Assembly (NCBI RefSeq): GCF_033153115.1
Contig: NW_026889771.1
Location: 6,696,001-6,760,000, forward strand
Direction: 5' to 3'
DNA from: Saccostrea echinata
Lineage: Eukaryota
Length of the DNA stretch: 64,000 bases
In this document: in pieces, positions 5 to 35,763 of the stretch
Layout of the letters: each line of letters begins with the position of its first letter
How positions within the stretch are numbered: position 1 is the stretch's first letter
The notes under the pieces: model-generated
The model's database searches: none
Told to the model about the DNA's origin: nothing
Seen by the model: the letters and a program-made list of their open reading frames with translations, nothing else
Made by a program: the position numbers and the translations under genes

Positions 5-3000
5 TCACAGAAACAATTTTAAACCATAAAAAAGTACAACCAAGATCAAAATGATTCTAGATTGCATATTTCCTCCTGTCGACGTTAGGAATTTATAACC
101 GTTGATCGTGTTATATAGTTTGACATAGTCCTTTCTGTAATGGTTTCCATTCGTCATATTCCTTATGCTCAGTTGTTTGTATGATTCTGTGTTACTGAGA
201 TAGGGCAACCAGTCTGCTTTGTTGGGACCGTTTGGATTTCTGATGGAAATAATTAATATCACCGAGTAAGTAAACACACAATGAAAGGTTCATAAGAATT
301 ATAACAAAATTATACTTTTTAACTTACATCTCTCCCGTTTTTTATAAGCTTTATAAGAATCATAACGAAAAACATACTTTTCTTTATTTATAACTTACGT
401 CTCGTCTGTTTTTTTTTTTAAAAATAAATACATGTTTGTCTTTTGATATTCGGAAAGTCTAACTTTTTTTGTAGTTTTTATATCAATAAAGGTTATGAGT
501 TTGAATTTACCATTGGTGAAACATTTACGCAAACTACGTTTTGAACACACATAATATATGAGTTTTTTTTATACACTACAGCTCACATATCTTTTGAATA
601 GCTAAAAATTAATGAATTATTATAAAACAAAATATATGTCTTTTCCTTCTGCATATTTTTTCGTTAAAACATGAAGTAAGGATATATTACAGCATTTCAA
701 ATTCATATGAAGAAACCTTATTTCACAGAAATATTTTCTTACCCTGTTTTTGCAAAATTTGTCCAGTATTCAATTAGCTGTAGTGATAATGCCGCCTGCT
801 TCGCAGAGAGAGTAAAATTAGAATTTGCCAACTTTCTAGCATCGAAGAGATATATCAACTCAGTTCCATGTCCCGCCCCATGAAGCCAAGATGGGAACTT
901 TGGATAAAGCGAGTGTTCCCCTTCCGAAAATATGAATTGATATGTTGAGGAGGATTTGCTTGAGGCATGAGCTTGTAACATGTTTATAGTTGGCAAAAGA
1001 AACGGAAAATCCGTCAAATAATGTGCAACATTCAAAGATTGAGTAGTTTTGTCTTTACTGGTATATTCTTGACATATTAGATCAGAAATTGTTGAACTAT
1101 TTTCATAGTAAGTTTGAACAAATCCTGATATCAACGCATCACAAAGAAATCGTTTTGGAATTCCATCTGACATATTGAAATTAAATTCTCTTTCGAAAGG
1201 TTTACCTGTGATAAAAACATACGCTCCCTCCATATCACAGGTACCCGCTATCAAGTCAATTGATTCAAAGAACTGAAATTCTTCCGAAGATTTATCTCTA
1301 ATCAATTCCATAGGTGTTCTTTGAAGTAAGTCACCATCTAGTACTGGGGTAAATACAAGTTCATAAAAGACGTCAATGCCAAGCGTTGCAGAATATTCAT
1401 CAGTTTTGTTGACAATGATACCAGCGTCCAAATTTCGCAAACATCGTAAGAACATCGATTGGTCTTGATCATTACAACGAGAGTTCTTTCCTATCAGGCG
1501 TCCAACATTTGATGATCTTTTCATAGCAATTAATGAATTTGCTGTGCCACTTTCAATGATTGCACGATGGAAAAGACCCTTATTACGGGGTATAAGCATT
1601 TGAAAATTGACGGAAAATCCTCCAGCTGATTGACCAAATATTGTAATAGCAGACGGGTCTCCACCATAATCATCTATGTTGTCTTTGATCCATTTCAAAG
1701 CTAATATCTGATCCCACAATCCGACGTTTTCATCAACTCCAGAGTACTGCAAAGATGGAAATCCAAACATACCCAGGCGGTAATTTATTGTCACAACAAT
1801 TACATTACCATGGGAGGCTATCCTAGAACCATCGATTGAAATACCTGATCCAAGCATGTATGCCCCGCCATGAATAAAAACCATAACGCTTCTCCTCAGA
1901 TCTTGAGTAATATTATAAGGAACATATATATTCAACTGGAGACAGTCTTCTGAAAAATAATTATGATATACACTAGCATAGGTGTATGATTGCATGCAAG
2001 CAGGTCCAATTTTAGTCGCATCGAGAGTTCTCTTCCAGGAACCGTATGGCTGCGGTTTGAGAAAACGTTGGCTACCAACTGGTGCTTTACCAAAAGGAAT
2101 TCCTGTGAATCTGAAGATGTCACCCTTTGTTGTAGGAATTACTAAGCCATTAACATTTCCAAGACGCGTAATAACGGTAAAGTTTTGGTACGCGGAGACT
2201 AGGGTAACTGCCATAAGGAATAGGACTATGTATTGCTGTAGAATTAAAAATAAATTAATGATAAAGTCTATTTCAAAACAATTTTTTTCGTCCTCTTATA
2301 ATTGGAGGTTTGGGGCATATAGTTTTTGGAGTGTCTGTCTGTTTGTCTGTGTGACTGCAAAATATTGATCTTTACTACCTTTTTATAAACTTTAACCCTG
2401 GATCTAACATTTGACTGGTTGGTGCTAAGACTTATATTTCACAGGTTTATCCCTTGTAATGAAGATCTTTGGGTTTTAAAACATTTTTTATCTCATGACC
2501 TTGGCCTTGGTGGTTAACTTGCAATTGATTAACTTTGATTCTGTCCATGGCTGCAATACGGGGGTATCAGTGTTTTATAAGCAGATCCTGTAACTACAAA
2601 ATTTAACATAGAATAACAGTATTATAACTAATGTCAAAGACTTGTTACCTTCAATTATATGGCAAGTTTCAGCGCTGTTTTACATATGTGTAACAAAGTT
2701 TTAACCAAAATATAAACTTTGCATATTTTTTAATCCGTAAACTTGAAATAACTCAAGGAACCGCTGTCCAAGTCAAGTAAGATCATTAGCCAACTTACTT
2801 TCAAATATGAGCTGTAACTGCAGATTTCACATTTTCCCAACATCAACTTCGAACTTGTCGAAATATCATTTGTTTAACAGCATAAAATCTGGTCAAAAGC
2901 AAAAAGCAGTTGTGTCGCGTATGAATATTAGCTTCTCCGTGACAAAAACTTAATGAGTGTCCGAAATTAAAATAAATTAATGTCAAATAAAGCAGAATAA

Positions 3001-3351
3001 AGGACTCCATTGCAAATAAAAAAAAATGTACATAGTTTTCTACACCTAAAGAATTGATTTTAAAAAGCGATAAAATGCATTTTCATACTGCCTTAACAAC
3101 AAAAATCAAGCCAATAGTCTAAATTCAATTTCATTATATTTGATACATCATTTGACCAATACGCAATTTCTGATATCTTCGAAATGAAAATGTTCGTATA
3201 AAGATACCTTTACAAATTTGAATGAAAGTTCAGAAAGGTATAAATGCAGACTGTGAATAATATCTGAATTATTTAAGACAAAGAGTTAAGGACAGAATAA
3301 GGTAATTTTTTTGATGTGCAACAACAATAAATTTATACTTACAAATGACAT
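5..3351 (-). CDS. Type-B carboxylesterase, GPI-tail class, copy A1 (3 coding exons, ~578 aa)
   Basis: Exons: 3351-3343 (ATG TCA TTT|gtaagt), 2235-743 (ttctacag acceptor, GG|gtaag donor) and 239-5 (cag acceptor, TGA). They join in frame (1737 nt). Motifs: SEDCL, HGGAY oxyanion loop, NYRLG, GQSAG nucleophile elbow, CDMEG (acid), AGHGTE (His), WTNFAKTG|NPN. Hydrophobic N-terminus and hydrophobic C-terminal tail. Confidence 0.9.
2283..2591 (+). mobile_element. Short Helentron/HINE-like non-autonomous element in intron 1 of copy A1
   Basis: 5' GTCT microsatellite, about one unit of the tgaccttg/ctttcatatttcac repeat, and a 3' end ggggtatcagtgttttataagcagatcctgt similar to the ends at ~20350, ~28925 and ~36640. 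Family assignment is by resemblance only. Confidence 0.55.
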
Positions 3352-34329: not shown

Positions 34330-35763
34330 GCGATGCTTAAGAAGTGTAAACCCAATGAAATTAGTGAATGCTACTGATGAGTACGCTTCTGATTTGGGGC
34401 TTCCAGCAATCTCGCGCACGATTTTCGCTCCCATAGTTGATGGAGAACTGTTGAGAAGAGAACCTACTCTTCTTTTACATGATAAAAGTTCTTCAGAATT
34501 CACTTTCTTCCAGTCACTGGATGTAATGATAGGTAACTGTGAGAACGAAGCTTCTTTAATAGTTTGTGCATTCCCATTCCTACAAGATGAGCTTACCTTC
34601 AATATAAGCATTGGTGTTCCAACGGTGGAAATGTGTAAGGTATTTCTACCCAATTTATTAAACGAAAAGATGAAATCTAATGTCCGAGTCTTCAAGGACG
34701 TGTGTGACATGTACACCGTAAAGGAGAATGATGTAGCAGAGCAAGGGCGCCAATTTTTAAGCCTCATTAGTGACTATCTCTTTCTTAGACCATCCACTTC
34801 AATGCTGCTTGAACACTCCAACAATGTCCAGGCATCTTCTACTTATCAATATGTATTTTTTGATGAACTCTCATTCATGCTTCCAAATGCTCCTTTGTGG
34901 TATCGTGGCTCTGCTCACGCCACGGAATTAGTTTACTTGTTCTTCTATGAACAGTTAGTGTCACATGTTAAGTATCCTGAAGGTGCCGAAATATTGGTGA
35001 ATCAAATGAGGTCATATTGGACGAATTTTGCCAAAACAGGGTACGTATAATTCTGCATTGGAAAGAATAGTAAAAACAAAGTCCTATGGCTCTTTCCTTT
35101 CTTCCATTTGTTTGAGGAAGATATTCAAAGTCTGAAAGCGCTAGTAATCTAACGTGGGAGTATAGAAGTATGTAGTTTGATATGAATTTGATGTACTCTC
35201 TCTTTAAGACACCAATGTAAAGAAATTCTCCTTGAACAACACATTTATTAGTAATGATTTGTTTAAAAATATTCAAACACTAATTTGTCGACGGATTTTT
35301 TGCTTTCCCAATCATGACAAGCAGCACACGATGTGTGTGACCGGTCGACAGAGGATGTTTACTCCTCCACAGTACCTGATCCCACCTCTGATGTTTTTAG
35401 AAGTCTGCCTTTGCTCTGGTTTCAATTTGAGCTTAATTACTGTTCGTTATCTTCACATTTCATGTACGTGTTTAAAAAGTGGTTTGTAGGTAAAAACCAT
35501 CAGTTGATTTCACAATTTCCAATTTTGACAGCTGTATATTTAAATTGTGTATTTTCAGAAACCCAAATGGTCCTGGACTTCCAGTATGGTTGCCTTTTGA
35601 TCGTAATTCCAGTCATCCTTACATGAGCCTGAGGTCACTAAATACTGAGATGGGGCAAGACTACAGAAAAGAGTACATGGAGTTCTGGCTTCATAAGATC
35701 CATAGAATGTTGTTCGAGGCTGACTGTGATCAAAATAGCTATGCTTTACCTGTTGTAGGATAG
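34330..35763 (+). pseudogene. 3' half of a PVVG-class carboxylesterase (psi-B3), interrupted by the LTR element
   Basis: 34330-35040 matches 24096-24806. Donor gtacgt at 35041; terminal exon 35559-35763. Lacks the signal peptide, oxyanion loop and catalytic Ser. The remaining frame is open. Confidence 0.9.

Follow-up and report, generated by a model that had tools for sequence, protein, structure and literature searches.

A cluster of type-B carboxylesterase genes with different C-terminal tails and a head-to-head gene pair in the oyster Saccostrea echinata

Mammalian carboxylesterases (CES) occur as C-terminal targeting variants, in which forms retained by an HXEL end are distinguished from secreted forms. 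For divergent neighbouring genes, a bidirectional pair is conventionally recognized by start sites lying within about 1 kb, and the Est-alpha and Est-beta esterase genes of Culex reportedly display a head-to-head layout, which our literature search did not confirm. The present analysis deals with a stretch of 64,000 nucleotides, referred to as the window, from the 923-Mb genome of the oyster Saccostrea echinata (G000:C22:6696001-6760000), which is a cluster of oyster type-B carboxylesterases. In this cluster, minus-strand genes (A) coding for esterases with a hydrophobic tail of the glycosylphosphatidylinositol (GPI) type and plus-strand genes (B) coding for esterases with a cysteine-containing PVVG tail diverge from a common spacer, an arrangement that an earlier note on this DNA had regarded as a repeated cassette that may share a bidirectional regulatory region. 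The explanation considered here as the probable one is that of a birth-and-death cluster, in which the divergent layout of A and B would have arisen once, by inversion or inverted insertion, and been copied passively by tandem block duplications, the last exon of each gene acting as an address label for the enzyme.

Vertebrate acetylcholinesterase (AChE) exists as splice variants, the H form with a GPI signal and the T form as a soluble enzyme with a cysteine near its end. The GPI signal of AChE is only loosely defined, as an omega site followed by a hydrophobic stretch, in PMC3045457, which also presents the butyrylcholinesterase (BChE) of medaka as an H-only enzyme at the paralog level, and a split at the gene level is thus already known in cholinesterases. 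Two cholinesterase forms differing in localisation, hydrophobicity and inhibitor sensitivity have been reported from the gill of Crassostrea gigas (Bocquene et al. 1997, as summarised in the review PMC7922589). Finally, CCEae3a and CCEae6a of Aedes are described, in PMC4441504, as a linked and co-amplified pair of esterase genes.

The head-to-head junctions and their copies

Two head-to-head junctions occur in the cluster and only one of them, A2/B2, has both genes open. The A2 gene (16902..21277, minus strand; exons 21277-21269, 19063-17571 and 17136-16902) encodes a protein of 578 amino acids with a GESAG nucleophile motif and a predicted GPI signal, the translation of which is identical to RefSeq XP_061181840 (P0001), named carboxylesterase 1C-like. 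On the opposite strand, B2 (23101..27722, plus strand; exons 23101-23106, 23263-24806 and 27518-27722) is open, with GT..AG introns, and encodes 584 amino acids that retain the Ser-Glu-His triad and terminate with a C-x4-C..PVVG tail. The ATGs at 21277 and 23101 are separated by a spacer of 1823 bp (21278..23100) containing a ~60-bp piece of a high-copy repeat at ~22100-22160, and a candidate alternative first coding exon of B2 (22438..22449, plus strand) occurs within this spacer, in frame and with GT..AG borders. These gene models and the three ATGs, as proposed in the earlier note, are correct.

Spliced joints were read from contigs of four sequencing runs guessed to be RNA, which give no start sites, strand or levels. 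The last intron of A2 is spliced exactly (CT..AC on the plus strand) in contigs of three of the four runs, from two studies, and the last intron of B2 (GT..AG) in a contig of one run out of four; the lack of coverage of B2 in runs X2-X4, and of first exons in all contigs, was not counted as evidence. The contig spanning the B2 intron shows five listed differences in exon 3, all of which correspond to the letters of the paralog B4, and none listed on the side of exon 2, so that this contig may stem from an allele whose last exon has undergone conversion. B2 and B4 are 88% alike in their last exons (27518-27722 and 43765-43969) and 80% alike in their catalytic exons, and B2 and B4 of Saccostrea cucullata have their own tail variants in common, which suggests gene conversion of the tail exon between the two genes. 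The RefSeq model of B2, XP_061182343 (P0161; window 23101-30434), starts in the middle of the domain and drops the N-terminus, splices out the terminal VG and stop, and is fused to an open reading frame of a Pao element. It is likely a mis-annotation, and the fused models of S. cucullata and Ostrea edulis, in which a GT is used in the same PV/PI codons, also look like annotation errors.

The second junction associates A1 (5..3351, minus strand; exons 3351-3343, 2235-743 and 239-5), an open gene with GT..AG introns, with psi-B1 (6007..7641, plus strand), a B2-type pseudogene disrupted by many frameshifts and stops into at least five reading-frame pieces, for which no tail exon was found in 7601-16900. 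A1 codes for 578 amino acids comprising a signal-peptide-like N-terminus, a GQSAG motif and a predicted GPI signal, and is covered by RefSeq XP_061182341 (P0003) from an internal Met onwards. Its spacer (3352..6006) contains a repeat insertion of ~1 kb at 4540-5500, and keeps at 5562 an ATG and GT donor that are the counterpart of the alternative exon of B2. At both junctions the genes are divergently oriented with no gene between them, and the A first exon and the spacer exist in only two copies in 124 kb (the window plus 30 kb on each side). A1/psi-B1 and A2/B2 align as a collinear chain of nine matching blocks extending from the A last exon (exon 3) to the end of B exon 2, and similar proportions of aligned columns are identical in A exon 2 (86%) and B exon 2 (87%), which argues for one block duplication. 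In one of these two full copies a partner has been lost, B1 being dead while A1 is open.

The arrangement was previously counted four times, and the two junctions described above, with both 5' ends and the spacer, are the part of this count that stands; the relic and the B3 copy have no spacer. At the relic site, a third A gene is represented by its frameshifted last exon, of GPI type (12601..12819, minus strand), which also contains a stop and is accompanied by a 3' flank (10950-12600) matching the sequence that lies 3' of A1, to the left of the window. A B4-type gene is represented 1.7 kb away by a relic of its promoter and intron-1 region (14508..15043, plus strand), which ends within the signal-peptide region; no catalytic exon or spacer lies in between, and this 5' piece (14508-15034) is closer to B4 (41450-42015) than to B2. 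The fourth copy consists of a tandem duplicate of 19407-28025, located at 28022-36071 and beginning inside A2 intron 1, so that its first part (28022..29588, a duplicate of 19407-20840) contains no A coding exon. Its middle, i.e., A exon 1, the spacer, B exon 1 and the first half of B exon 2, has been replaced by a Pao/BEL-type long terminal repeat retroelement with stop-interrupted frames (29691..34327, plus strand; PF05380 and PF18701). There follows psi-B3 (34328..35763, plus strand; P0124), the 3' half of a B2 copy devoid of signal peptide and catalytic Ser, which keeps the first Cys of the tail and has the second replaced by Tyr. The synonymous divergence (dS) amounts to 0.34 for A1/A2 and 0.21 for B2/B3, the latter copy being the younger.

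The rest of the locus contains open paralogs with PVVG tails, all on the plus strand: B4 (41771..43969), the exon-1 junction of which is approximate and which has no A partner upstream, C1 (47652..49558) and C2 (57314..60384), both devoid of an A partner. A further paralog without A partner, D (plus strand), lies 4 kb beyond the window and ends in FVLG. All these ends conform to a hydrophobic-hydrophobic-Gly pattern, designated xxG, and an A partner is missing for four of the five open xxG genes of the locus (B2, B4, C1, C2 and D), only B2 being paired.

Enzyme family and tail classes

A full COesterase domain (PF00135) was recognized in all six open catalytic exons (A1, A2, B2, B4, C1 and C2), with scores of 396-423 bits against a curated cut-off of 27. 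The genes are built from a short first exon, one catalytic exon of ~1.5 kb and one last exon. The nucleophile occurs in a GESAG or GQSAG motif, the Glu and His are aligned with those of AChE and lipase, and the GG oxyanion hole is present. Ratios of nonsynonymous to synonymous divergence (dN/dS) of 0.32 for A1/A2 and 0.18 for B2/B4 indicate purifying selection.

The solved structures of AChE, BChE, CES1 and bile-salt lipase give about equal scores against A2, B2 and B4, and the position of the AChE Trp84/86 loop corresponds to a gap or a non-Trp residue in B2 (alignments with 5hq3, 4qww and 6emi), so that these enzymes are to be considered as lineage-expanded carboxylesterases, not AChEs. Trp84/86 is counted among the residues of the cholinesterase gorge in PMC3045457. 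In A2, the loop between the two cysteines is similarly devoid of Trp, as read from the A2 sequence itself and not from an AChE alignment. The T (WAT) peptide was not found in the B tail, which extends for ~20 residues past the last domain helix without any aromatic-rich extension. An identity as acetylcholinesterases was rejected on account of the missing Trp84 loop in B2 and the missing T peptide, and lipid or xenobiotic esters are likely substrates, rather than synaptic acetylcholine.

The hydrophobic A tails and the Cys-PVVG tails of B, as described earlier, were both recovered, with best 13-residue Kyte-Doolittle means of 2.06 and 2.64 for the A tails, and C-x4-C..ALPVVG ends for B. By pattern and hydropathy, the A genes possess a small omega residue, a short spacer, a terminal hydrophobic stretch and an N-terminal signal peptide. 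The candidate omega residue of A2 is the Ser of S-A-G, located 25 residues from the end, and a small-residue triplet with Ser at this distance recurs in 12 of the 14 A-type tails, which come from four oyster genera; those of C. virginica and O. edulis deviate in spacing. The A enzymes are thus predicted to be GPI-anchored at the cell surface, and B, C and D would be soluble secretory enzymes with a C-x4-C disulfide loop. In Magallana gigas, two annotated isoforms of A type (P0164 and P0165) have a short polar end in place of the hydrophobic GPI-signal end; splicing may therefore already supply a soluble form, which hints at an AChE-like alternative splicing inside the M. gigas A gene itself.

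At the scale of the genome, 65 matches were obtained and tails were read from 40 fetched stretches plus the window. The 29 catalytic-exon ends of S. echinata comprise 7 GPI-like, 4 HDEL, 7 xxG and 3 plain tails, together with 8 internal domains or unassigned ends, and five of the seven GPI-like genes sit outside this locus. Among seven multi-gene esterase clusters, this is the only one to use both strands, the other six being single-stranded; at 585-627 kb of the same contig, for example, a five-gene same-strand array contains two GPI-like genes, plain-tailed genes and the ortholog of an xxEL-tailed gene. Of 343 homologs (exact duplicates dropped), 173 have a tail of 40-160 amino acids, distributed into 73 xxEL, 44 GPI-like, 30 xxG and 26 plain, the remainder having no tail, a longer tail or no anchor motif. 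In a FastTree tree of 191 sequences and 473 columns, built after fused proteins, short ones and duplicates of genes from the S. echinata genome had been left out or split, tail classes are scattered over many clades; the A clade and the B+C+D clade are each supported at 1.00 and are not supported sisters. The idea that paralogs are divided between membrane-bound and soluble forms, put forward for the A/B pair, is therefore well supported as a prediction, owing to the conserved Ser of the A tails, but it applies to the family as a whole and is not specific to the pair.

Two additional observations deal with tails elsewhere in the genome. A paralog at G000:C12:6294258 (minus strand; locus L027/L026) reads QDEL-Y followed by 38 more residues up to a hydrophobic end, its sisters ending in MHDEL and a stop; a change from retention in the endoplasmic reticulum (ER) to a GPI-like end by loss of the stop codon is possible, as is chance read-through. 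Closely spaced arrays of catalytic exons, annotated as multi-domain esterases, occur at G000:C1:25501965-25524008 and C14:12964195-12975423, the last unit of the C1 array having a GPI-like tail.

The xxG ends deserve a separate comment. Amidation by PAM takes place on secretory proteins with a C-terminal Gly, Gly-Lys or Gly-Arg-Lys, and the xxG tail resembles such a signal carried by a whole enzyme. Hydrophobic-hydrophobic-Gly ends, followed or not by -K or -RK, are found in 30 of the 173 proteins with a 40-160 amino acid tail, four of them being -GK or -GRK; the variants PVVG, PIVG, VLG, IFG, IGK and ILGRK are spread over five separate bivalve clades, in addition to a PIIG in Aplysia, and a C-x4-C ring often precedes them, as it also does in two mussel-clade sequences. 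As the best lead of the analysis, though a tentative one to which we give a rather low probability, mollusks would possess a swappable last exon with four states (GPI, HDEL, plain and xxG), of which xxG would be a PAM signal, whole 60-kDa enzymes being amidated or sorted to regulated secretory granules like peptide hormones. One Magallana paralog, which ends in PIVL, argues against this lead, and no genome-wide excess of C-x-x-P-[VIM]-[VIM]-G-stop was found (29 matches versus 28 in a reversed control, with TAA/TAG only and the Cys and Pro fixed). This cluster accounts for four of the 29 matches and the remaining 25 fall in short or unconvincing frames, so that this narrow test gives no sign of the exact motif being common on unrelated proteins. 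A search of the ESM Atlas with the B4 tail gave no match at 0.9 or above, and the tree cannot separate convergence from retention of the xxG ends.

Origin of the head-to-head layout

According to the favoured explanation, an inversion or inverted insertion would have placed A and B back to back on a single occasion, after which tandem block duplications would have copied this layout and gene death would have followed. A and B would likely be driven from two separate proximal promoters. The last exon would behave as a changeable address label, specifying a GPI, ER-retention (HDEL), plain or xxG end. For the A enzymes, cleavage at the conserved Ser would remove the hydrophobic end and a GPI anchor would take its place, which would yield an esterase exposed at the cell surface. 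The short C-x4-C..xxG end of B, C and D would leave these enzymes soluble within the secretory pathway, with an internal disulfide loop and perhaps amidation at the C-terminus. Further paralogs in this genome have HDEL, by which they would reach the ER lumen, or plain ends. The step from tail to location draws, for the ER, on HXEL retention as known for CES. For the membrane, it draws on the GPI rules given in PMC3045457.

A selected bidirectional cassette, in which a single regulatory region would ensure the joint production of a membrane-bound and a soluble esterase and thus achieve by gene pairing what H/T splicing achieves in AChE, appears unlikely. It can rely on a true divergent pair present in two copies with 1.16-1.82 kb between ATGs, on near-identical contigs of A2 and B2 both occurring in run X1, on the third A relic, to the right of which a B4-type 5' relic follows in the same orientation, and on the homology of the spacer copies. 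This homology, noted earlier for 4005-4530 and 21960-22370, is confirmed by a global score of -83 against -218.5 for the best of eight shuffles. However, A intron 2 is also alignable between copies (-52.5 versus -171, eight shuffles), and, counted per base of the shorter piece, the noted spacer segment has 0.73 matches, A intron 2 has 0.71 and the adjoining spacer stretch 0.62. Conservation is highest over the 150-250 bp beside the start codons (0.80 for A and 0.82 for B), reaches 0.78 in the block at the alternative B exon, and the middle of the spacer has received different repeat insertions in each copy. No shared conserved core is seen in the intergenic region, the spacer middle being kept no better than intron 2, and two proximal promoters flanking decaying DNA offer a better fit to this pattern than one shared core. 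Gene relationships in other oysters also point away from a conserved head-to-head pair, as far as sequence models can tell. A-type genes were found in Saccostrea, Ostrea, Magallana and Crassostrea. In S. cucullata, three annotated A proteins lie on one contig and a fused model contains B2-, B4- and C1-type domains in that order, so that A outnumbers B2-type 3:1 in the annotation; the third A agrees, at least in number, with the relic A of S. echinata. One B-type protein was found in O. edulis, along with fused models of A-A and C-D composition; the A-A model (P0224) was discarded as uninformative on pairing because an opposite-strand B could lie in its intron. In M. gigas, the model K1Q0B1 joins a C-type exon (PIVG) to a following A-type exon, its halves matching RefSeq XP_065922445 and XP_065922447, and both exons therefore lie on one strand. 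No B-clade protein from Magallana or Crassostrea was present among the 120 best matches to B2, nor in the tree. Since, in addition, both genes are kept in only one of the two full copies, most xxG genes are unpaired, other GPI-like paralogs belong to same-strand arrays, A and B are not supported sisters, and the M. gigas isoforms suggest that splicing may already provide a soluble form, the claim of a selected, co-regulated A/B cassette is left unsupported.

A variant of co-regulation, by accident, would be that the inversion brought promoters close together, so that enhancers or open chromatin are shared and A2 and B2 are partly co-expressed in Saccostrea, the pairing itself being unselected. 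The short divergent gap and the conserved spacer blocks at 22242-22362 and 22405-22631 speak for it, but it is compatible with the birth-and-death explanation, to which it only adds a side effect, and it is quite unlikely to be the explanation of the locus. Haplotype duplicates are common in oyster assemblies, and the repeated blocks could be the two haplotypes of one heterozygous animal, assembled one after the other; this is very improbable and largely refuted by the dS of A1/A2 and by the existence in S. cucullata of separate orthologs for A2 (P0002) and A1 (P0004 and P0005), with supports of 0.91 and 1.00, as well as for B2 and B4 (P0225).

Several points nevertheless weigh against the birth-and-death explanation. 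The unique part of A intron 1 (2687-3340 versus 20628-21268) is better kept than intron 2 (0.77 versus 0.71 matches per base), so that regulatory DNA may exist; an enhancer or an alternative exon are both possible in this part. Given the ATG-to-ATG distance of 1.82 kb, which falls to 1.16 kb if the alternative exon is used, transcription might begin at sites ~1 kb from each other. The divergent junction has come through one full duplication, after which the two first exons and the alternative B exon can still be aligned. K1Q0B1 is one fused model from an old draft, in which a long intron could hide an opposite-strand gene, and synteny in relatives was deduced from protein models, which do not fix the orientation of A and B in S. 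cucullata and Ostrea. A metagenome scan for DNA of relatives gave one locus, at 36% identity, from 52 candidates. Tail classes were set by a hydropathy cut-off and regular expressions, and the deep nodes of the tree are too weak to order the tail changes.

Apart from the esterases, an Ependymin-related gene with a signal-peptide-like start (9605-10940, plus strand) sits between psi-B1 and the relic A exon; its PF00811 match is weak (E 2e-4, under the curated cut-off), and the gene is missing from the other duplicated blocks. Tandem and dispersed repeat families occupy introns and intergenic regions at 19190-20420, 28022-29199, 36261-36458, 37910-40790 and 60646-63051, the family at 19.5-20.2 kb being very abundant in the contigs of the sequencing runs.

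Significance and comparison with known systems

On present evidence, the locus is a tandem esterase cluster of an ordinary kind. It allows the annotation of B2 to be corrected and provides candidates for the genes behind the "cholinesterase" activities, both membrane-bound and soluble, that serve as pollution biomarkers in oysters. Were the xxG end an amidation or sorting signal, amidation would be extended from peptides to a family of large secreted mollusk enzymes, with a simple sequence rule for their destination, and a promoter shared by A2 and B2, if real, would represent a lineage-limited case of co-regulated surface and soluble esterases. No published description of this cluster or of the xxG tail motif was found in a search that left aside subscription papers and supplements and does not establish absence from print.

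Compared to the type-B carboxylesterase/cholinesterase family (PF00135), the oyster genes show the same full domain and triad, tandem clusters with pseudogenes, and paralogs that differ in C-terminal targeting, but they differ by a catalytic domain almost entirely contained in one exon, by a tail encoded in a separate last exon, and by four tail classes, xxG included, in one genome. The analogy with the H and T forms of vertebrate AChE, drawn in the earlier note, holds as far as a GPI signal on one end and a soluble end with cysteine on the other are concerned. It is only a loose one, given that the enzymes are not AChEs and that no T peptide occurs in the B tail: the oyster split involves separate genes instead of splice variants, the B end of ~20 residues has two cysteines (C-x4-C) and B2 no Trp84 loop, and in the A tail the omega site is not preceded by a conserved cysteine. 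The two cholinesterase forms of the C. gigas gill similarly represent two oyster esterase forms differing in location, but these activities are not tied to genes in the available text of PMC7922589, and no link to A or B was found. Like the mosquito esterase pairs, A and B are two neighbouring esterase genes copied as one block; the mosquito copies, however, are recent, near-identical and selected by insecticides, whereas those of the oyster are old (dS 0.2-0.34), with one of the partners usually lost.

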